32,000 bases of DNA from Acaryochloris thomasi RCC1774 (GCF_003231495.1 NZ_PQWO01000004.1:330001-362000); one strand, 5' to 3'; counted from the stretch's first letter, positions 13,081-20,716 are shown. Translations and numbers: made by a program. Notes: a model not told the origin generated them from the sequence alone.

Positions 13081-13413
13081 CTAGCTCAAGTCTTCCGTCG
13101 GAGCACCAGGGGCATTGGTCTTGACGGAAGAAATACCGTTCTCCATTGCTTGAATAGAGGAATACATCTCACTAGTGCCGACAATCTCGCCATTTGCAGC
13201 CTTGAGGACAAAGTAGGGTTCCTGCTTTGTCGATGTGAGTCGGTTGTACCGATCATCGTGGGGAGCATTCATTTGTACAGACTCGATGCCGTTCGTGGCG
13301 CTAGCCTTGGCTTTGTAGAGTTCGCTAGAGAGGATGACTTGACCATTATTGGCCTTGAAATTGAAGTGAAACTGACCGTTTGTAGCCCGCTTGAGTTCAA
13401 ATTTTCTCGGCAT
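13081..13413 (-). CDS. YegP family protein (tandem DUF1508 repeats)
   Basis: Two repeats of the DUF1508 pattern: GQFHFNFKANNGQVILSSELYKAKASATNGIESV and YFVLKAANGEIVGTSEMYSSIQAMENGISSV. Confidence 0.85.
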   Translation of the reverse strand: MPRKFELKRATNGQFHFNFKANNGQVILSSELYKAKASATNGIESVQMNAPHDDRYNRLTSTKQEPYFVLKAANGEIVGTSEMYSSIQAMENGISSVKTNAPGAPTEDLS

Positions 13414-13684
13414 TGGTCTTTCCTTGAGTGCAGTAGTTAGCGATTTAACCCACGCTTACGTGCTCTAACTCATGGGCGGCTAATCTCCAGTAATCGCTTG
13501 TAGGAATTATCTCAGTCGGAGTTACGACGGCCTGTACAGTGTTACATTTACTTACTCTGGTGCTGGAACCTCATGATTGATCAACCATGCAGTATGACCT
13601 CTATTTGCTGTTTTTGAAAGAGCTGTTCCCGACTTTGATCTATGGCCCTTATGGTTCTTAAGATAGGCGTAATTTAGTTCTGTA

Positions 13685-14779
13685 ATGCAGAAAGTTCTTA
13701 TTATTGGCGGCACTGGACGCATCGGCCAAAGTGTTGCGAAGGATATTCTCAGCCATACCGATGCCCACGTCATAATCACGGGTCGCCAAGTGGGGCAGAC
13801 GGTTGCAGATAAGCTCGGTTCTCGGGCAACCTTTCAAGCGCTCGATCTCGCAAACTATGAAGGTCTAAAGAGCGCTGTTGCTGCTGCTGATCTGGTCATC
13901 CACACTGCTGGTCCCTTCCACGATCGCAACGCCCAGGTCTTGCAACTATGTATAGACAATGGTGTCAACTACCTAGATGTCAGCGACCACCGTTCTTTTA
14001 CCAACAAAGCGGTGGCTTATCGAGAAGATGCGATCGCAAACAACGTCACGGCCATCATCAATACAGGCGTCTTCCCCGGCATCTCCAACAGCATGGTGCG
14101 GCAAGATGTTGAAGCACTCGATCAGGCCGAACATATTCATCTGAGCTATGTGGTGGCGGGTTCTGGTGGAGCCGGATTGACGGTGATGCGAACCACTTTT
14201 CTAGGCTTACAGAATACCTTTGACGTGTGGCGTTCAGGTCAGTGGGTGTCAGCGGAACCCTACAGCAAACGCGAAGTGATCCACTTCCCAAAACCCTACG
14301 GACCTGTCAATGTTTTTTGGTTTGATGTCCCGGAGGCGCTGACGCTGGCGCAGTCGTTCGATGTACAAACGGTAATCACAAAGTTTGGCTCGGTGCCAGA
14401 AATATACAACGTATTAACTTGGCTAACGGCTCGACTGCCAAAAGCATTGCTGCGGAAGCGTTCTGTGATTGAGTTCTTCTCTTGGGGCAGCTATCGTTGT
14501 ACAGAATTTAGCGATCGCTTCACGGGGACGGGTGTTGCCATGCGTTCTGAGGTCAAAGGTTTGAAGGATGGGAAGCCGACGACGGCTTGTTCGACATTGG
14601 TGGTGGATGACACTGCGATCGCAGCCGGTTATGGCACCGGTAGTATTGCCCAACTCATCTTGTCAGGGCAGTTCTCTAAACCGGGTGTTTGGCCTGTTGA
14701 AGCGAGTTTTCCCACAGATCTCTGTCAGTCGATGTTGAAACTGCGTGGCGTCAACATCGAACAGCAGATATTCAACTAG
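13685..14779 (+). CDS. Saccharopine dehydrogenase family NAD(P)-binding protein
   Basis: N-terminal Rossmann motif (KVLIIGGTGRIGQSVA) and overall sequence pattern typical of the saccharopine dehydrogenase family. The last ~270 nt are duplicated in diverged form at 15750-16025. Confidence 0.85.
   Translation: MQKVLIIGGTGRIGQSVAKDILSHTDAHVIITGRQVGQTVADKLGSRATFQALDLANYEGLKSAVAAADLVIHTAGPFHDRNAQVLQLCIDNGVNYLDVSDHRSFTNKAVAYREDAIANNVTAIINTGVFPGISNSMVRQDVEALDQAEHIHLSYVVAGSGGAGLTVMRTTFLGLQNTFDVWRSGQWVSAEPYSKREVIHFPKPYGPVNVFWFDVPEALTLAQSFDVQTVITKFGSVPEIYNVLTWLTARLPKALLRKRSVIEFFSWGSYRCTEFSDRFTGTGVAMRSEVKGLKDGKPTTACSTLVVDDTAIAAGYGTGSIAQLILSGQFSKPGVWPVEASFPTDLCQSMLKLRGVNIEQQIFN
14511..14518. repeat. HIP1 octamer GCGATCGC; representative of 23 copies seen by eye
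   Basis: Start positions found by eye: 467, 1135, 1838, 3613, 3769, 4416, 4988, 6088, 9652, 12771, 14030, 14511, 14615, 15858, 18564, 19221, 20954, 21994, 22795, 25400, 25518, 27419, 27711. HIP1 over-representation is a known hallmark of many cyanobacterial genomes. Confidence 0.8.
14511..14779 (+). repeat. Copy A of a diverged direct repeat; this is the in-frame, functional 3' end of the saccharopine-dehydrogenase-family gene
   Basis: By hand alignment to 15750-16025, the shared identical blocks are acgggtgttgccatgcg, gcttgttcgacatt and actgcgatcgcagccggtta. Homology begins at the HIP1 octamer at 14511-14518. Confidence 0.8.
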
Positions 14780-14849
14780 CGCTTTTCTGCTTCTGTTCTA
14801 AAACTGAGCTTTCACAACCCGCTTCGATAATGCCTGATATCAGTTTGGC

Positions 14850-14855
14850 TATAAT
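14850..14855 (+). promoter_or_regulatory. Consensus TATAAT -10 hexamer, ~50 nt upstream of the HNH-cassette first gene
   Basis: TATAAT read directly from ...tttggcTATAATgcg.... I found no convincing -35 element. Confidence 0.25.
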
Positions 14856-14905
14856 GCGATTGCAACCAGTCAGACGCAATTCTAATTTCACCAGGGCTGT
14901 AGGCG

Positions 14906-15316
14906 ATGCCATCTGTTCAAGTTACCTCACAAATCAACCTTGACCTTGACCAACTCATAGAAGGTGTGGCCCAGCTAGACACGCCTGATCTAGAAAAATT
15001 TCTAGCACAAGTGAGCCATGTTCTCGCCCGACGTAAAATTCCAAACCAGCCTGAGCAAGAGACAGAACTGCTGCAGTTAATTAATCAAGGCTTACCCGAC
15101 CCTATTCAGGAACGCTACGATTTTCTCCGAGCAAAATGTCAGGCCGAAACGCTAACGCTCACAGAACACCAAGAACTACTTAAGCTGATCGACACTGCCG
15201 AAAGCTCTACCAATGAGCGGCTAGGACATTTGATAACCCTAGCGAGTCTTCGTCAGGTTTCGCTGCCAGAGTTGATGAAACAGCTCGATATTCAGCCACC
15301 TGCCCCCGATGTCTAG
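14906..15316 (+). CDS. Hypothetical 136-aa helical protein, translationally coupled partner of the HNH endonuclease (possible antitoxin or immunity/adaptor)
   Basis: ATG at 14906. The stop TAG at 15314-15316 overlaps the HNH ATG at 15309 (ATGTCTAG, 8-nt overlap). The sequence is acidic and helical-looking, ending ...LRQVSLPELMKQLDIQPP. I have seen proteins of this kind upstream of small cyanobacterial HNH genes; this is recollection, not a search result. Confidence 0.65.
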   Translation: MPSVQVTSQINLDLDQLIEGVAQLDTPDLEKFLAQVSHVLARRKIPNQPEQETELLQLINQGLPDPIQERYDFLRAKCQAETLTLTEHQELLKLIDTAESSTNERLGHLITLASLRQVSLPELMKQLDIQPPAPDV

Positions 15317-15734
15317 ACGCTACATCACCATCGATGAGCAACAAATCGTTATTGATCGGGCTGCTAAACGCTGTGAATACTGCCAGAGCTTGATGGACTA
15401 CACACCACAATCATTCGCAATTGAGCATATTGTGCCGATCTCAGAGGGTGGTCTAACTTTGTTAGATAATCTAGCCCTTGCCTGTGGTGGCTGTAACGGT
15501 CATAAATACACTAAACAATCCGGCATCGATCCCGTCACGAAAGCGACTACGCCTCTATATCATCCCAGACATCTGCAGTGGGCAGATCACTTTGTATGGA
15601 GTCAAGATTACCTGAGTCTCATTGGTACAACGGCCATCGGTAGAGCAACGATTGAAACACTTAAACTCAATCGAACTGGCGTTGTCAATTTACGTAAGCT
15701 GCTGATTTTAGCTAGATTACATCCACCTAGCTAA
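15309..15734 (+). CDS. HNH endonuclease (small, McrA/COG1403-like)
   Basis: CEYCQS...EHIVPISEGGLTLLDNLALACGGCNGHKY is an HNH ββα-metal motif with a CxxC...CxxC zinc knuckle. Confidence 0.85.
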   Translation: MSRRYITIDEQQIVIDRAAKRCEYCQSLMDYTPQSFAIEHIVPISEGGLTLLDNLALACGGCNGHKYTKQSGIDPVTKATTPLYHPRHLQWADHFVWSQDYLSLIGTTAIGRATIETLKLNRTGVVNLRKLLILARLHPPS

Positions 15735-15749
15735 TCACTATGCCTCGAT

Positions 15750-16025
15750 GCGATCACTTCATGGGCACGGGTGTTGCCATGCGCTCTGAGTCAAAGACCT
15801 GGACCTGAAGGACGCGAAGCCGACGACAGCTTGTTCGACATTGTGGTGGATGATACTGCGATCGCAGCCGGTTACGGCACAGGCGGTATTGCCCAACTGA
15901 TTCTATCGGGGCAGTTCACTAAACCTGGAGTTTGGCCTGTAGAAGCCAGCTTGCCAACTAATTTCTTTCAAAAAATGCTCTCCCAACGTGGCATTTCAGT
16001 TACTCAGAAGATAGCAAAGAGTTAA
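15750..16025 (+). pseudogene. Displaced, frameshifted copy (copy B) of the 3' end of the saccharopine-dehydrogenase-family gene
   Basis: It aligns to 14511-14779. Relative to copy A it lacks a g in gag-tcaaag, has extra bases in acctggacc, and lacks a g in catt-gtgg. The copy-A frame therefore hits TGA after ...GTGVAMRSESKTWT. The last 60 codons are back in frame and 43/59 identical to copy A by hand alignment. The HIP1 site at the junction has decayed to GCGATCAC (15750-15757). Confidence 0.8.
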
Positions 16026-16084
16026 AATCATTCCCATCCTTGAAGGCTACTATGGAGGAGTAGAAGCGTATCATCACCAGATAA

Positions 16085-17212
16085 ATGCTATCTAAGTTGC
16101 AAGTTCAGCATTATAAGAGTCTATTTGATACAGAGATAACATTGGAGCCGTTAACCGTATTCATTGGCCCAAATGGATCGGGAAAGTCTAATATTTGTGA
16201 ATCTTTATCCGTACTATCCAGCTTCTTTCAAGCAATTTCTAATCCCCAAGATTATGACATGCAGGGGCTGTTTACAAAGTACACTCAAAAAACTGGTAGC
16301 AACCAAAGTTTTGAATCTAAATTCTGGCAAGGACAACTGAACTATCTTGTCTTCAAAGCCAGCTCACTAACTATCGAAGACGATCCTCCTTCCGAAGAGG
16401 GGAAAAATATTACTGAATTATCTCTTGGAATTGACTATCCCGAACAGCTAATCTTTGCCAAGGCTTCTAGCAAAGATTATGTAAGGAACAAATACACTGA
16501 ACGAGTTAGGTCTGAGCTGATTGGCTCAGGAGTTTTTGATTCTGAAATCTTCTCTGCACTGAAAAAAGTTGAAGTCTATGATTTCTCTCCTGCTGCCTTG
16601 GCACGTGTCGTTGGTTCATCAGTAACCTCCATGAATCGTACAGGAGAAGGTATTGCCTATGCTCTAGTCGACATCTTGCACGCTGATCGTCAAGGCTTTG
16701 ATGAATTGGAGGAGAGACTGAGGCAGCTCCTGCCCAACATCAGTAGGATTGTTCTACCTCGAGGCAATAATCAGAGCTTCTCACTTGAATTAATCGATAA
16801 ATATTCGGATCACCATATCCCTTCCTCCGATATCTCAGATGGCTCACTGAGAATTATTGCTTTCTTAACAGCGCTGTATCAGGAAGATACTCCAAGTATT
16901 ATTTGCTTTGAAGAGATTGAGAATGGAGTTCATCCTTGGCTTCTACACAAAATGGTGGAGTTACTGAAAATTGTCTCTACTGAGGGAATTTCCGGTCAGC
17001 CAGTCCAAGTTCTGATCACTACTCACTCACCTACACTACTCAACTATGTTGATCCTCATCAAGTACGCGCGGTAGAAATAGATAAAGAAGGTAAAACTCA
17101 AGTTCATACTTTACCAACAGACTCGGCTCGTTTCCGAAAGGCATTGGAAGCATACGACGGAGATTTAGGAGAACTCTGGTTTACGGATCAATTTGGGGGT
17201 AATCCAGCATGA
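16085..17212 (+). CDS. ABC-type ATPase of the AAA_15/AAA_21 (OLD/PARIS AriA/Septu PtuA-like) class
   Basis: Walker A is GPNGSGKS (aa 28-35, nt 16166-16189). The signature-like motif is SDGSLR (aa 251-256), Walker B is IICFEEIENGVHP (aa 272-284), and the H-loop is ITTHSP (aa 311-316). About 200 aa are inserted between Walker A and the signature motif. Confidence 0.85.
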   Translation: MLSKLQVQHYKSLFDTEITLEPLTVFIGPNGSGKSNICESLSVLSSFFQAISNPQDYDMQGLFTKYTQKTGSNQSFESKFWQGQLNYLVFKASSLTIEDDPPSEEGKNITELSLGIDYPEQLIFAKASSKDYVRNKYTERVRSELIGSGVFDSEIFSALKKVEVYDFSPAALARVVGSSVTSMNRTGEGIAYALVDILHADRQGFDELEERLRQLLPNISRIVLPRGNNQSFSLELIDKYSDHHIPSSDISDGSLRIIAFLTALYQEDTPSIICFEEIENGVHPWLLHKMVELLKIVSTEGISGQPVQVLITTHSPTLLNYVDPHQVRAVEIDKEGKTQVHTLPTDSARFRKALEAYDGDLGELWFTDQFGGNPA

Positions 17213-17949
17213 ATCGTCCAATTCGTATTGGGCTGATTGCAGAAGGTGAAGCAGAACTGGGACCGAGTGTGCCCTACATCAAACCTGAAGACGGCGGCAA
17301 GGCAATTGACAGAAACCAGGAAGGAGCACTTCATACGCTTATCAGGCGGGAGCTTCAAAGCATTGGTATCTCAGATTGTGAATTTGTTCAGAGGCACCCT
17401 CTGGCGAAGGAAAGTAAACGCCGGACAGGATATTCGATTCTGCAGCCGAAATATCTGGCTCAGGTCGTAATCTCGTGGTCTCCAGAAGAAGTCGACATGA
17501 TCCTCATTACGGTTGATTCCGACGATGAGCTATCTCAAAGGCAAAGCAAATTACAAAAAGCTTTGGAGACAATCCGTGAAAATCACTTTGATACCAATGA
17601 TCACCCAATTGATGATCAAAGTGTAGGAGGAATAGCAATACGTAACTTTGAAACATGGCTGCTGGCAGATTATCAGGCTGTGGCACAACTGCTAGCGCTA
17701 GATCTAGAAGAGATCGAAAGCTTAGAAGGCTCAGACAGTACGAAAGAGATCTTGGAGCAAGCAACTACTGATTCAACCTACCTTGCTAATGACTCTAGCA
17801 ATCAGCGCCCTCTCCGAGTTCGCTGGGATCTTGCCTTTAAAGTTGATCTGGATGTCGTGAAGTTCCGTTGTCCAGTGGGATATGGTGCGTTTATTCAGGA
17901 CTGTATGCAAACTGCGAGAGCAACCCAAGAGCGTATTGAATCGGAATAG
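17209..17949 (+). CDS. DUF4276-like protein with Toprim-type motifs (putative nuclease effector)
   Basis: The ATG overlaps the ATPase stop (ATGA at 17209-17212). IGLIAEGEAE (aa 7-16) is a Toprim glutamate motif, ILITVDSDDE (aa 98-107) is a DxD motif, and IRNFETWLLAD (aa 144-154) matches what I recall of the DUF4276 signature. The assignment is from memory and was not searched. Confidence 0.7.
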   Translation: MNRPIRIGLIAEGEAELGPSVPYIKPEDGGKAIDRNQEGALHTLIRRELQSIGISDCEFVQRHPLAKESKRRTGYSILQPKYLAQVVISWSPEEVDMILITVDSDDELSQRQSKLQKALETIRENHFDTNDHPIDDQSVGGIAIRNFETWLLADYQAVAQLLALDLEEIESLEGSDSTKEILEQATTDSTYLANDSSNQRPLRVRWDLAFKVDLDVVKFRCPVGYGAFIQDCMQTARATQERIESE

Positions 17950-17965
17950 CAGGCACTGTTGATTG

Positions 17966-18223
17966 CTACTCATAAATGGAACTTCTATGGCCCACTCTAA
18001 TCACAAGCACGATTAGCTCCGCGTCCTGGATACTATAGATAACGCGGTAGTTTCCAGAGCGTATGCGATAGAGATTCGTTTCACCCTTCAATTTTTTGCA
18101 GTCTCTAGGGCGAGGATTTTGTTCTAGCTCTCGTAGCTTTTTACCAATACGTTTTTGTTCAAGCTGTGGTAATTTCTTGAGTTTCTTAACGGCAGTCTTC
18201 TCGATATTGATGCGGTAGCTCAC
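17966..18223 (-). CDS. RelE/ParE family type II toxin
   Basis: KKLPQLEQKRIGKKLRELEQNPRP...LKGETNLYRIRSGNYRVIYSIQDAELIVLVIRVGHR is the classic RelE/ParE pattern. The GTG start overlaps the antitoxin stop (GTGA). Confidence 0.85.
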   Translation of the reverse strand: MSYRINIEKTAVKKLKKLPQLEQKRIGKKLRELEQNPRPRDCKKLKGETNLYRIRSGNYRVIYSIQDAELIVLVIRVGHRSSIYE

Positions 18224-18435
18224 AAACCTAGCTCAGCTTTTACCTCTGCCCAAGGGATTGCACTTCCGGGGGTTGCGCCAGCCAATACCTCCTGAGACAC
18301 CTGAATATCTTCCTGTTCTTCCGCAATTAAAGCTTCTGCAGCTTCCATGAGGAAATCCTCTACGGAGGCATAGCGGCCTTCTGATATAGCTTGATTAATA
18401 TATTGCTCTACTTGAGGACGCAGGGAGATGTCCAT
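18220..18435 (-). CDS. Type II antitoxin (ParD/RHH-like), partner of the RelE/ParE toxin
   Basis: 71-aa acidic protein directly upstream of, and overlapping, the toxin gene by 4 nt. The N-terminus MDISLRPQVEQYINQAISEGRYASVEDFLMEA resembles ParD-type antitoxins. Confidence 0.7.
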   Translation of the reverse strand: MDISLRPQVEQYINQAISEGRYASVEDFLMEAAEALIAEEQEDIQVSQEVLAGATPGSAIPWAEVKAELGL

Positions 18436-18535
18436 TGATTTTCCCCATATAGATTAGATATTTAGATCCTAGCCTAATGACGATAGGCTGCAGCAAGTGG
18501 TCAATTTCGGTCAGAGGGACTCTCCTAATCTATGG

Positions 18536-19366
18536 CTATCGAGGTCGCAGGATGCCAGGGGATGCGATCGCAACTCCACCCATCCCATCAACGGAATCTG
18601 GGCCCACCTGATAACACCCTGACCAAGCCGCCAAAAGCTGATTGGCCGACACTTCCATCCGCTGTAAATCGTTTTGAGATGCCCCGGCTTCCAGCCAAGC
18701 CTGAGGGATGCCCACTCGACCATTCAGCGCTCCAGAAAAAGCACCCGTCAGCAGCAAAGTGAGGGAAGAAACATCTGGAATGCGGTGGGCGCGCAGCACG
18801 CTGAGCTGAAATTGTTCCGCCGTACTCAGCCAGCAATAGAATGCTAAGGCAATCGCAACCTCAGTGTGTTGAGGATCTCCGAGTTTTTGAATGGCAATCG
18901 CTAAAGAATCTCGCCGAGTCAATAATATCTGGACCTGTCTTAATTTCTGAGAGAGCGTTTCATCTGGTAAAAGCTGAACCAACTTCGGCAGCAGCTCAAA
19001 AGGAGCCATTTGCGGCTTGAGAGCAGCAGCAATACTCTCAGCAACCACAAAGCCTACATCTTGAATCGCTTGAGGAATTGCATTCATGATCGCTTGTCTC
19101 AGCTTTTGAGCGTCGTCATGGAAGTAGAGCGCTATGGGTATTGTTGATGCAATCGCTCTATTGGTTTCGGCTACGAGTGGGGGGGCTGACCGGGTTGCAA
19201 TCAGAGATTGGGCTGACGTTGCGATCGCAAAAGATAAACTAGAGACCACCCGATCACGGTCCCCTCTTTCTTGGGGCTGTTCCGTGGGATTGGGATACGG
19301 CAAAATTTCACCCACTAGCGCTCCAGTGAGCGCCCCTCTAAATCGATTGATGAGCGAGTAAGGCAT
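18536..19366 (-). CDS. ADP-ribosylglycohydrolase (ARH/DraG) fold protein with divergent active-site motifs
   Basis: The N-terminus RFRGALTGALVGEIL aligns with the ARH motif G.a.GDALG. The C-terminus IPDVSSLTLLLTGAFSGALNGRVGIPQAWL aligns with GGDADTTGALAGMLAGATYG...IP..W. It contains HIP1 sites at 18564 and 19221. Confidence 0.55.
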   Translation of the reverse strand: MPYSLINRFRGALTGALVGEILPYPNPTEQPQERGDRDRVVSSLSFAIATSAQSLIATRSAPPLVAETNRAIASTIPIALYFHDDAQKLRQAIMNAIPQAIQDVGFVVAESIAAALKPQMAPFELLPKLVQLLPDETLSQKLRQVQILLTRRDSLAIAIQKLGDPQHTEVAIALAFYCWLSTAEQFQLSVLRAHRIPDVSSLTLLLTGAFSGALNGRVGIPQAWLEAGASQNDLQRMEVSANQLLAAWSGCYQVGPDSVDGMGGVAIASPGILRPR

Positions 19367-19450
19367 AGGTTCTTTGCTTGAGAATGCGATAGGAACAACA
19401 TATAAACCAGTTGATTCTACCCTCGTTAACCGCTTGAGCTGTCTCAGACT

Positions 19451-20542
19451 TCATCGACAATCTGTAGAGCCTGATTGCTGCACTACGCTGAAGGGCTTTG
19501 CACCTGCAAAGACAATATCTCTCCGATCATGGTGAATCAGTAGCTGTCGCTGCGACGGACTATTTTTCCACTCCCCCATCAAGACATAGTTCTCAATAGC
19601 AAAGGGGATAAAGTCAAAGTCTAGATGGTGTGGCTCTGCCTGCCGACTACTCATAAAGGCCAGCCTAAAGAGACGCGGCCAAAAGAGGGTCCGCCAGTAT
19701 CGACGCTGCACTTTGAATTGGGGCACGAACAGTCTGCAGAGATTGGGCGACGCGAAAGCAATACTCAATGACAAAGAGCTGCCTGACGAAATGAGATTCT
19801 TGGCATTGAGCATTACATTTATATCTTCTGCTAGAGATGAAGACTGCACCCTTACGCCGGGAATCAGACGTCTAAGCTGGGCAACACATAAATTTTCTGC
19901 ATCCTCTGCCACAACCACAATCTTGCTGAAGCCAAACTTCTCAATCACCTCTAAATAAAAACTTAAGGGAGGGGGAAGGAGACCTGGGTGAGGTCTTTTG
20001 GAAAAGATATCTCCTGAGCGGACGTGAATAACGAGGGTATCCTCTGCCATAGATGCGTTTTTCCGGTAGGGGAGTAGAGGCAGAACCCTAGCTCTAAGAA
20101 TGCGCCGATAGTCTGCCAGCTTAGGCACCAGCGGAAATACATCGTAGCTGAAGTAAAAACATCTCAATAAAAATTTGCCGCACTCAGGTCTAGCTTGGGT
20201 CGGGCTCAGGAGATCCCTCAACAGAACTTTAGGAGTGGCAACCCCTATATTGTTGCAATGGCCGTTATTCGTCGGATGGATACTGCCGATCGCCTCCACT
20301 GACAAAAAAGGATGCTGGGGAAAAGATAGCGGCAACCCCAGTCGTTGAGACAGCATCTCTGCATGGGCGATTTGAATAATATTGTTTCCAAGCCTACCGT
20401 GCCAGCGTCTCAGATAAATCTGACCGTTGCTCTCCCTCAGCCACATCTGCAATTTTGCGATTCTAAGCATAATTAGGCCAAAAACCTGCAGTAGGGCAGC
20501 TGGGTAAAGCAGCTTCTTGCCCTTTCTAAATTTATTGTTCAT
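19451..20542 (-). CDS. Putative glycosyltransferase with fucosyltransferase-like (GT11-type) motifs; start uncertain
   Basis: GRLGNNIIQIAHA resembles GT11 motif I (GGLGNQMFQYA), and LVIHVRSGDIF resembles the HxRRGD motif. The track ORF begins at a TTG at 20608. The first ATG at 20542 would give a hydrophobic N-terminal anchor. Confidence 0.55.
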   Translation of the reverse strand: MNNKFRKGKKLLYPAALLQVFGLIMLRIAKLQMWLRESNGQIYLRRWHGRLGNNIIQIAHAEMLSQRLGLPLSFPQHPFLSVEAIGSIHPTNNGHCNNIGVATPKVLLRDLLSPTQARPECGKFLLRCFYFSYDVFPLVPKLADYRRILRARVLPLLPYRKNASMAEDTLVIHVRSGDIFSKRPHPGLLPPPLSFYLEVIEKFGFSKIVVVAEDAENLCVAQLRRLIPGVRVQSSSLAEDINVMLNAKNLISSGSSLSLSIAFASPNLCRLFVPQFKVQRRYWRTLFWPRLFRLAFMSSRQAEPHHLDFDFIPFAIENYVLMGEWKNSPSQRQLLIHHDRRDIVFAGAKPFSVVQQSGSTDCR

Positions 20543-20716
20543 TCTGAGCAATAGATGAAGAATTGGCCTTGAGCCTAAAGCTATAGCAGAAATATCCTGA
20601 ACCTTCAAGAACGAAAATATCCGCTTGACTCGCTACTGGTATATATGTACTATGTAACTCCACGGCTACACCCATAAAAAATAGCCCGTGTTTGAACGTC
20701 TGACTGTGAGGCAACT

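Follow-up and report, generated by a model that had tools for sequence, protein, structure and literature searches.

An intact gene of the saccharopine dehydrogenase family in Acaryochloris thomasi RCC1774 is followed on the same strand by a cassette of two genes, ORF136 and an HNH endonuclease gene, and then by a second, diverged copy of its own 3' end. The locus was analyzed within a 32,000-nt stretch of the genome (NZ_PQWO01000004.1:330001-362000; hereafter the window, with positions counted from its first base), and its features are collected in Table 1. The product of the dehydrogenase gene is 100% identical to the A. thomasi RCC1774 protein annotated as lysine 6-dehydrogenase, and the HNH protein is C1752_01810 of the same strain. 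The two copies of the gene end are termed copy A, the functional end of the gene (its last 269 nt), and copy B, the downstream remnant.

Table 1. Features of the dehydrogenase-HNH locus in the window, and repeats that bracket the cassette at other loci
Feature	Position	Strand	Basis or remark
Saccharopine-dehydrogenase-family gene, 364 aa, intact, mosaic	13685-14779	+	PF03435, E 9e-21
5' gene segment, L012-like, putative remnant of the resident allele	13685-13756	+	Informative sites
Left homologous crossover zone	13754-13768		Maximum Fisher test; last clustered L012-type site at 13768
Putative imported block, L071/L070-type: gene body, tail A, promoter region, ORF136, HNH gene, 15-nt spacer	13757-15749	+	Informative sites, identity
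Copy A (tail A), functional 3' end of gene, with HIP1 octamer at 14511-14518	14511-14779	+	Groups with L071 and L070 tails
Spacer with likely cassette promoter, TATAAT at 14850-14855	14780-14905	+	-10 box shared among cassette loci
ORF136, conserved all-helical partner protein, 136 aa	14906-15316	+	Directly precedes the HNH gene (at least 33 of 41 loci)
HNH endonuclease gene, 141 aa, intact, 8-nt overlap with ORF136	15309-15734	+	PF01844, E 8e-11
Spacer, HNH stop codon to junction	15735-15749		15 nt
Copy B (tail B), probable displaced 3' end of another allele, pseudogene, with decayed HIP1 octamer at 15750-15757	15750-16025	+	Indels, dN/dS, informative sites
HEC-01-type candidate defence pair (AAA_21 ATPase and DUF4276), low G+C	16085-17949	+	PADLOC HEC-01A, E 8e-43; HEC-01B, E 4e-8
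ParE-type toxin (17966-18223) and upstream 71-aa partner (18220-18435)	17966-18435	-	PF05016, E 7e-14
ADP-ribosylglycohydrolase, right syntenic anchor	18536-19366	-	PF03747; syntenic in L010 and L070
Repeat bracketing the cassette in L025			181 nt, 89%; 5' end and upstream region of a DUF2281 gene duplicated
Repeat bracketing the cassette in L043			104 nt, 92%; 3'-terminal ~100 nt of a gene of the uracil-DNA-glycosylase family, to its stop codon
Repeat bracketing the cassette in L035			78 nt, 91%; 3'-terminal ~80 nt of a gene for a type ISP restriction enzyme, to its stop codon
Repeat bracketing the cassette in L032			54 nt; ambiguous case

BLASTN aligned copies A and B over a 199-nt block with 84% identity (E 8e-51). 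Three ungapped blocks make up most of the match, namely 14511-14551 with 15750-15790 (90%), 14562-14599 with 15806-15843 (92%) and 14600-14727 with 15843-15970 (83%); as a whole, the repeats are 269-276 nt long and 76-84% identical, with indels. Copy B begins 15 nt beyond the HNH stop codon (15732-15734) and carries a +5-nt and a -1-nt indel, both within its first ~95 nt and both breaking the frame. Its final 60 codons are open (ORF 15771-16025), and 43 of 58 residues match tail A. Homology sets in at the first G of the palindromic HIP1 octamer GCGATCGC in copy A and of its decayed form GCGATCAC in copy B, and the 40 nt 5' of the octamer are unrelated in the two copies. A first-pass annotation of the window had described the recurrence of the gene end after the HNH gene, the 15-nt distance, the frame-breaking indels, the onset of homology at the octamer and the lack of an integrase, and formal alignment together with domain searches bears out this description: only ORF136 and the HNH gene lie between the repeats, and no recombinase gene was recognized among the ORFs there or in neighbouring ORFs. 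A 14-nt inverted repeat with 13 of 14 positions complementary pairs 14561-14574 in tail A with 16031-16044, 6 nt past the copy B stop codon; similar pairs occur elsewhere in the region and it is probably a chance match.

Elements that integrate site-specifically by means of an integrase, such as islands in tRNA genes and gene 3' ends, can carry an attachment site with a replacement gene end, and such integration would likewise keep the gene intact and displace the original end, as at attL and attR. We consider this explanation extremely improbable. Neither a recombinase nor a transposase lies between or beside the repeats, which at 269 nt and 76-84% identity are not short and identical, and junction sequences vary among cassette loci, as described below.

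The manner in which A and B have diverged is informative about their origin. The locally aligned part contains 31 substitutions, 22 synonymous and 9 non-synonymous; random changes would be synonymous in 25% of cases, and the observed proportion has a probability of 8e-8 under neutrality. Over the first 38 in-frame codons, differences number 3, 0 and 15 at the first, second and third codon positions, respectively (dN 0.036, dS 0.86). Because divergence is biased toward synonymous sites, A and B differ as functional alleles do, and the codon-position pattern implies that copy B was a working coding sequence for almost its whole separation from A and a pseudogene only briefly. These comparisons support the view that A and B are alleles of different lineages and not an in-place duplication that decayed, in keeping with the first-pass annotation, which took them for two alleles too diverged for a recent tandem duplication. 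Conversion of B by A was also considered as a source of the coding-like state of B and was rejected, since a neutral B is expected to change at first and second positions at ~60% of the third-position rate, whereas the observed ratio is ~1:10.

Direct repeats around an insert would also result if the gene end had been duplicated in tandem in place, or if a target-site duplication had been very long, and the downstream copy had then decayed. This explanation is nevertheless contradicted already by the divergence data, and we assign it a very low probability: changes in a non-functional copy would be spread evenly over the three codon positions (P = 8e-8, as above), and a dS of 0.86 with ~4% change at first and second positions is impossible for a B that was always neutral. 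The phylogenetic affinities of the two copies differ as well. Three contigs with related loci were used for this comparison, two of them (L071 and L070) metagenomic contigs of closer relatives reached through an ORF136 search, and the third (L012) carrying a relic of the cassette. At informative sites, copy A is L012-like at 2 and L071/L070-like at 23, and copy B is L012-like at 11 and L071/L070-like at 15; tail A is 88.8% identical to the L071 tail and 84.4% to that of L070. An equal relationship of both copies to one orthologue clade, in which the first-pass annotation would have seen a simple old duplication, is not what these counts describe.

The dehydrogenase gene itself has a mixed ancestry. 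Within 13685-13756, the window agrees with L012 at 13 informative sites and with L071 and L070 at 3; past 13756, the corresponding counts are 8 and 104. The first 60 nt of the gene are 87% identical to L012 versus 70-72% to L071 and L070, and a maximum Fisher test places the best ancestry breakpoint at 13754 (p 4e-10). From ~13757 onward, identity to L071 and L070 is uniform (82-86%) through tail A, ORF136 and the HNH gene; measured against L071, it is 86.6% in the gene core, 88.8% in tail A, 85.6% in ORF136 and 86.4% in the 5' part of the HNH gene. This flat profile indicates that gene body, tail A and cassette have one history. To judge from the distribution of informative sites, the annotated dehydrogenase gene is a chimaera. 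Against distant orthologues no discontinuity is detectable at 14511, because synonymous sites are near saturation (dS 1.2-1.9).

L071 is colinear with the window over 13685-15611 (86% identity), and L070 over 13685-15553 (82%), after which L070 has a different gene and homology resumes at 18307-20571. Both contigs have the gene with an A-like tail and the cassette with a truncated HNH gene, and neither has a copy B. The right-hand extent of the imported block is extrapolated, since homologous sequence in L071 and L070 does not continue past window positions 15611 and 15553, respectively. On the left, homology between the window and L071 begins only ~16 nt before the start codon (window 13400-13684 compared with L071:300-625), and the upstream neighbours of the gene differ in all relatives except L011, which shares a DctP gene; the gene and cassette thus form a block in shifting surroundings. 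L012 has a decayed ORF136 relic (L012:5159-5335; codons 1-59, with an in-frame stop) 47 nt past its dehydrogenase gene, the stop codon of which is shifted to add 7 residues. The L012 contig ends 240 nt past the relic, and the region of a possible copy B lies outside it. The cassette is present at the dehydrogenase locus in the window, L071, L070 and, as a relic, L012, and absent in L001, L010 and L011, with L001 being the single close orthologue retrieved by a genome scan; this distribution fits either vertical inheritance with loss or repeated gain.

On balance, we read the feature as the scar of a one-sided recombination that brought the HNH cassette into this lineage. A segment of ~2 kb (roughly 13757-15749) from an L071/L070-type relative, comprising most of a dehydrogenase gene with its own end (copy A), the promoter, ORF136, the HNH gene and 15 further bases, would have taken the place of the resident gene body. 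On the left, homologous crossing over of the ordinary kind would have joined the two within the conserved 5' part of the gene, at ~13754-13768. The right join would be irregular, linking the base 15 nt past the HNH stop codon to the resident gene at the HIP1 octamer equivalent to that at 14511. The resident gene body would thereby have been overwritten except for its first ~70 nt and its last ~270 nt, and the latter, as copy B, would have lost function and since been marked by two indels and a small number of damaging substitutions. The probable route is homology-facilitated illegitimate recombination (HFIR) of DNA taken up by the cell, with HIP1 perhaps supplying microhomology or a break, and the cassette may often spread in this fashion, anchored by homology in a neighbouring gene. 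We infer the donor and recipient sides, the uptake and HFIR route, the contribution of HIP1 and the function of the cassette from these comparisons. A single import is favoured because it explains the 5' mosaic, the block and copy B together. The first-pass annotation had proposed that the cassette arrived linked to a donor-type gene end, that the gene remained intact and that the resident end was moved aside; the breakpoint near 13754 and the flat identity of the block support the linkage, and the displacement is supported also. Its suggestion that a donor 3' end was imported holds for the donor tail and needs enlarging, since the import spans nearly the whole gene and not the tail alone. Of the routes it offered, the best fit is the first, repair or recombination that draws on a donor locus and ends in an irregular second join.

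An earlier proposal invoked HFIR to explain how effector and Rhs genes come to have displaced ends (PMC5361080), and displacement of gene 3' ends is known from effector-immunity loci of type VI secretion systems, Rhs loci and contact-dependent inhibition loci (PMC5361080; PMC3240628). In those systems, as in the reconstruction proposed here, one join is anchored in homology and the other is irregular, no dedicated recombinase takes part, and a new 3' end arrives with an accessory gene while the old end is orphaned downstream with some homology kept. At the present locus, the homologous side corresponds to the ancestry switch at ~13754 (Fisher p 4e-10), and the irregular side is abrupt at HIP1 with unrelated sequence before it; the original flank of the donor lies outside the L070 and L071 homology. 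The gene with the displaced end is here a housekeeping-type dehydrogenase and not a polymorphic toxin, and its new end therefore gives no new function; moreover, the payload is a separate HNH module and the join lies at a HIP1 octamer.

Several observations weigh against this interpretation. L010 also groups with L071 and L070 in the first 60 nt of the gene, and the 5' breakpoint could instead belong to the ancestor of L071 and L070. Copy B is not L012-like throughout, its first ~135 nt being nearer to A, L071 and L070 (84-87%) than to L012 (79%). No uninterrupted B-type gene was found among the 120 best dehydrogenase homologues, and the true donor is unsampled. L070 and L071 stop inside the HNH gene and do not cover the donor sequence at the right join, and our literature search found no demonstration of HFIR in cyanobacteria. 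Finally, polarity rests mainly on parsimony, with reverse polarity combined with an unrelated 5' conversion as the rival. An empty site ending in a copy-B-like tail, which the first-pass annotation had proposed to look for, was likewise absent from the 120 best homologues, none of which has a B-like tail closer to copy B than tail A is.

Copy B is heterogeneous along its length. Its middle is nearest to L012 (87.5%) and looks freshly orphaned by its sequence. Its last ~70 nt are only ~51% identical to every orthologue, yet read as a C-terminus of the family. Both indels fall in its first ~110-135 nt, and so do 6 of the 8 substitutions that hit otherwise invariant first or second codon positions, as counted over the first ~220 aligned columns. 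Together, pseudogene-type lesions number 8 in the first ~110 nt and 2 thereafter, a difference of weak statistical standing (p about 0.05). One possibility is that the donor may already have carried an old orphan stub past its HNH gene and that the right crossover was homologous within this stub; the unit bracketed by the repeats would then be a transmissible replacement-end element.

With the polarity reversed, the gene, tail A and cassette would be resident, and copy B would be the leading edge of an import (copy B, the HEC-01 pair and perhaps more) anchored by homology on the right and joined irregularly just past the HNH gene. We think this unlikely, but several observations are in its favour. 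Gene and cassette are common to L071 and L070. The HEC-01 pair looks foreign by base composition (39-44% G+C versus ~50% around it). The ADP-ribosylglycohydrolase gene is 72% identical between the window and L070 and 73% between the window and L010, whereas amino acid identity of the dehydrogenase is 90% and 82%, respectively; the mismatch with the dehydrogenase gene tree indicates that the right flank is of different ancestry, a point that supports the block import described above as well. Being the next gene common to relatives, the ADP-ribosylglycohydrolase gene marks the stretch from the dehydrogenase to this anchor as a variable, defence-rich region, occupied by a nonribosomal peptide synthetase gene in L010 and a Schlafen/AlbA_2 ATPase gene in L070. 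In L070 (L070:1673-3735, versus window 15553-18307), everything from inside the HNH gene to inside the ParE partner has been replaced by a gene with Schlafen/AlbA_2 and HATPase_c_4 domains, and a remnant of the ParE module is retained from window position 18307 on. Since both L070 breakpoints lie inside genes, the spot turns over by irregular recombination, as a turnover hotspot would. Reverse polarity needs a second, unrelated event for the L012-like first 70 nt, however, and leaves the recurrence of bracketing around the cassette elsewhere unexplained.

This recurrence was seen when left and right flanks were compared with each other in 31 cassette loci (about 27 of them independent). Four other loci, L025, L043, L035 and L032 (Table 1), have diverged direct repeats on either side of the cassette, and the first three are unrelated loci. 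L032 was dropped as a clean example, the locus also having an IS66-like transposase and a MazF-like gene. The order is the same in all bracketed loci, with the intact copy to the ORF136 side and the remnant beyond the HNH gene; most cassette loci have no flanking repeat. With few exceptions, the dispersed direct repeats in 214 kb of such loci flank the cassette or, in L050, a HigB-type module, and a rough Fisher comparison of bracketing with that of other genes gave p about 1e-3 to 2e-4 on an estimated denominator. The inner repeat boundaries of the five cases share no common motif. Identical HNH proteins on many contigs were considered as a sign of multi-copy mobility, which was rejected because they represent one locus sampled repeatedly. 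With differing junction sequences and identical HNH proteins confined to single loci, the pattern points to a mode of acquisition and not to site-specific insertion, and it probably also reflects a mode of retention. The site-specific, gene-end-targeting element envisaged by the first-pass annotation is not borne out, given the lack of a shared boundary motif, the many repeat-free loci and the restriction of identical HNH proteins to single loci, and targeting of gene 3' ends in particular conflicts with L025, where a 5' end is duplicated. In L035, a 76-nt piece of a second ORF136 copy (L035:2806-2881 versus 1999-2072, 92% identity) lies just before the right-hand repeat, which suggests successive cassette events at one site.

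The same bracketing invites comparison with homing in fungal mitochondria, where mobile endonuclease open reading frames (mORFs) carry a foreign gene C-terminus. Examples are the Allomyces macrogynus atp6-ORF360 element (Paquin et al. 1994, as cited in PMC3630166), the Glomus mitochondrial hybrids of atp6, atp9, cox2 and nad3 (PMC3630166) and the C-terminal duplications of cob and atp6 in Endoconidiophora (PMC6279837). Their layout is that found here, a core (13685-14510), a foreign C-terminal segment (tail A), an endonuclease ORF (the cassette, 14906-15734) and a displaced native C-terminal fragment (tail B), and in both settings the gene is functional as a hybrid and the two ends differ like alleles of different lineages. 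The present case is bacterial and chromosomal, and it involves an HNH gene with a second conserved gene in place of a LAGLIDADG or GIY-YIG ORF. Its cassette is a separate operon 126 nt past the stop codon, not an in-frame fusion, and the imported stretch spans nearly the whole gene. Insertion contexts are also heterogeneous. A displaced native end that matches element-free relatives is not seen here, the closest relatives, L071 and L070, having A-like tails together with the cassette.

Endonuclease-driven homing of a replacement-end element, as in mORFs, is a doubtful explanation of the locus. In such homing, the HNH protein, perhaps together with ORF136, would cut the uninterrupted allele near the equivalent of 14511, repair from a cassette-bearing donor would copy tail A and the cassette, and the orphan tail would serve as the right homology arm. 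Core, inserted end, endonuclease and native end follow one another exactly as in the hybrids of Allomyces and Glomus (PMC3630166; PMC6279837), the cassette is bracketed at several loci, always with the intact copy on the left, and the HNH gene is intact in the window. Lesions of copy B cluster in its block-like first ~110 nt (8 versus 2), as would fit an older donor-derived arm and a homologous right crossover. On the other hand, the five inner boundaries share no sequence, repeats are absent at most loci, and every identical HNH protein occurs at a single locus. The HNH proteins of loci with very different insertion contexts still share 60-70% identity, which speaks against co-evolution with a specific site, and the cassette often sits in type I restriction-modification (R-M) operons or among toxin-antitoxin (TA) genes, as defence or addiction modules do. 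An extension of this idea, to which we give equally little credence, treats the repeat-bracketed unit as a replacement-end cassette able to propagate itself, the bacterial equivalent of the mitochondrial mORFs. A first irregular capture at a HIP1 octamer would turn the orphan tail into a right homology arm, and tail, promoter, ORF136, HNH gene and stub could then enter any related uninterrupted allele by homologous recombination, with the HNH protein possibly making the initiating break and an addiction effect of the pair protecting the repeats against collapse. If true, HIP1 would be a genome-wide universal joint for cassette capture, and a 30-year-old HIP1 puzzle would gain a concrete role in horizontal gene transfer.

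HIP1 is hyper-abundant in the window, with 23 sites in 32 kb versus 0.8 expected; none lies between 15865 and 18564, a stretch that includes the HEC-01 pair. The site at 14511 belongs to the gene itself, since orthologues have it too, encoding Ser-Asp-Arg. A random breakpoint in the gene would fall within 1 nt of the start of HIP1 with a chance of ~0.8%, a figure calculated post hoc. In L050, a 168-nt direct repeat (L050:218-383 versus 1351-1518, 83% identity) surrounds the HigB-type toxin module, consisting of a HigB-like gene (640-939) and a partner (902-1321), and homology starts at the first base of GCGATCGC in both copies (218 and 1351). In L025, HIP1 lies 16 nt inside the boundary, not at it, and none was found at the remaining junctions, including the left and right L070 breakpoints and that of L071. 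An exact HIP1 at 2 of ~10 junctions has a nominal probability of about 0.002, again post hoc and drawn from few cases. These data are compatible with HIP1 as a ready-made microhomology or break site, and a role at the junction is no more than a lead suggested by them. Published work connects HIP1 with illegitimate or site-specific recombination (Akiyama 1998 and Robinson 1997, as cited in PMC4390886) and with transformation efficiency (Kamoku and Nielsen 2024, bioRxiv 10.1101/2024.09.10.611283). That work dealt with plasmid constructs and laboratory transformation, whereas the two junctions described here that fall exactly at the octamer are natural genomic scars. The two natural junctions tie in with the reported effects of HIP1 on transformation and recombination.

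The locus is a concrete case, and one that can be dated, of the way in which small modules of a selfish or defensive kind may move between related bacterial genomes without a recombinase of their own, riding on homology in a conserved neighbour gene and leaving a displaced gene end as the scar. Homing endonuclease ORFs of mitochondria and polymorphic-toxin tips are well-known examples of this pattern, and its recurrence around an HNH module would extend it to ordinary bacterial genes. Hybrid genes of this kind can mislead single-gene phylogenies as well as annotation, and copy B is an unannotated pseudogene.

The cassette is widespread as a two-gene module and seems to act like an addiction or defence pair. 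HNH homologues with 57-72% identity occur in many cyanobacteria and in one metagenome-assembled genome labelled Chloroflexota, and at least 33 of the 41 loci examined have an ORF136 homologue immediately 5' of the HNH gene. An ORF136 profile matched 3074 representative clusters (50% identity) at E<=1e-3, and one database member is an ORF136-HNH fusion; Pfam has no model for this family. In the HNH family alignment, C22, C25, H40, N54, C59, C62 and N63 are invariant, and all are present in the window protein, which by sequence has the Cys4 zinc motif and catalytic His/Asn of PF01844. A GCTATAAT-like -10 box precedes ORF136 by ~55 nt in many cassette loci; a consensus promoter scan did not call this box, the promoter and terminator scan yielded nothing useful, and Rfam gave no match in 14400-16200.

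Comparison with known defence systems gives a mixed picture. The HNH protein has its best PADLOC matches to PtuB models, and as in Septu and TA pairs the cassette is small, has co-oriented genes with an 8-nt overlap and lies in defence or TA neighbourhoods. The partner required by Septu was not found, the HNH gene being paired with a 136-aa helical protein and no PtuA ATPase; the downstream AAA_21 gene is the partner of DUF4276 in HEC-01 and is kept apart from the HNH gene by copy B. Two small adjacent genes in a conserved pair, as in type II TA systems, describe the cassette well (8-nt overlap, at least 33 of 41 loci). ORF136 showed no homology to known toxins or antitoxins in Pfam, NCBIfam, PADLOC, PHROGs, PDB or a fold search. 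It had no match of any kind in the first four of these databases, a Pfam scan of 38 diverse members returned singletons only, and a PDB profile search gave weak matches only. Its AlphaFold model has six helices at moderate confidence (pLDDT 65), with no Foldseek match in PDB below E 0.4. The HNH gene is truncated in L070 and L071 and frameshifted in L043, with ORF136 intact in all three; this decay of the nuclease before its partner is what one expects of a toxin-antitoxin-like or defence pair.

Defence or abortive-infection genes are often embedded within type I R-M operons. The cassette lies inside such operons in L007 and L009 and in a TA-rich neighbourhood in L008. The two operons are unrelated, and in each the ORF136-HNH pair is placed between hsdR and hsdS/hsdM (L007:3598-4432; L009:2341-3130). 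Proteins of the ORF136 family (~135 aa) are named inconsistently by annotators, as STAS/SEC14, HPt or Zn ribbon proteins.

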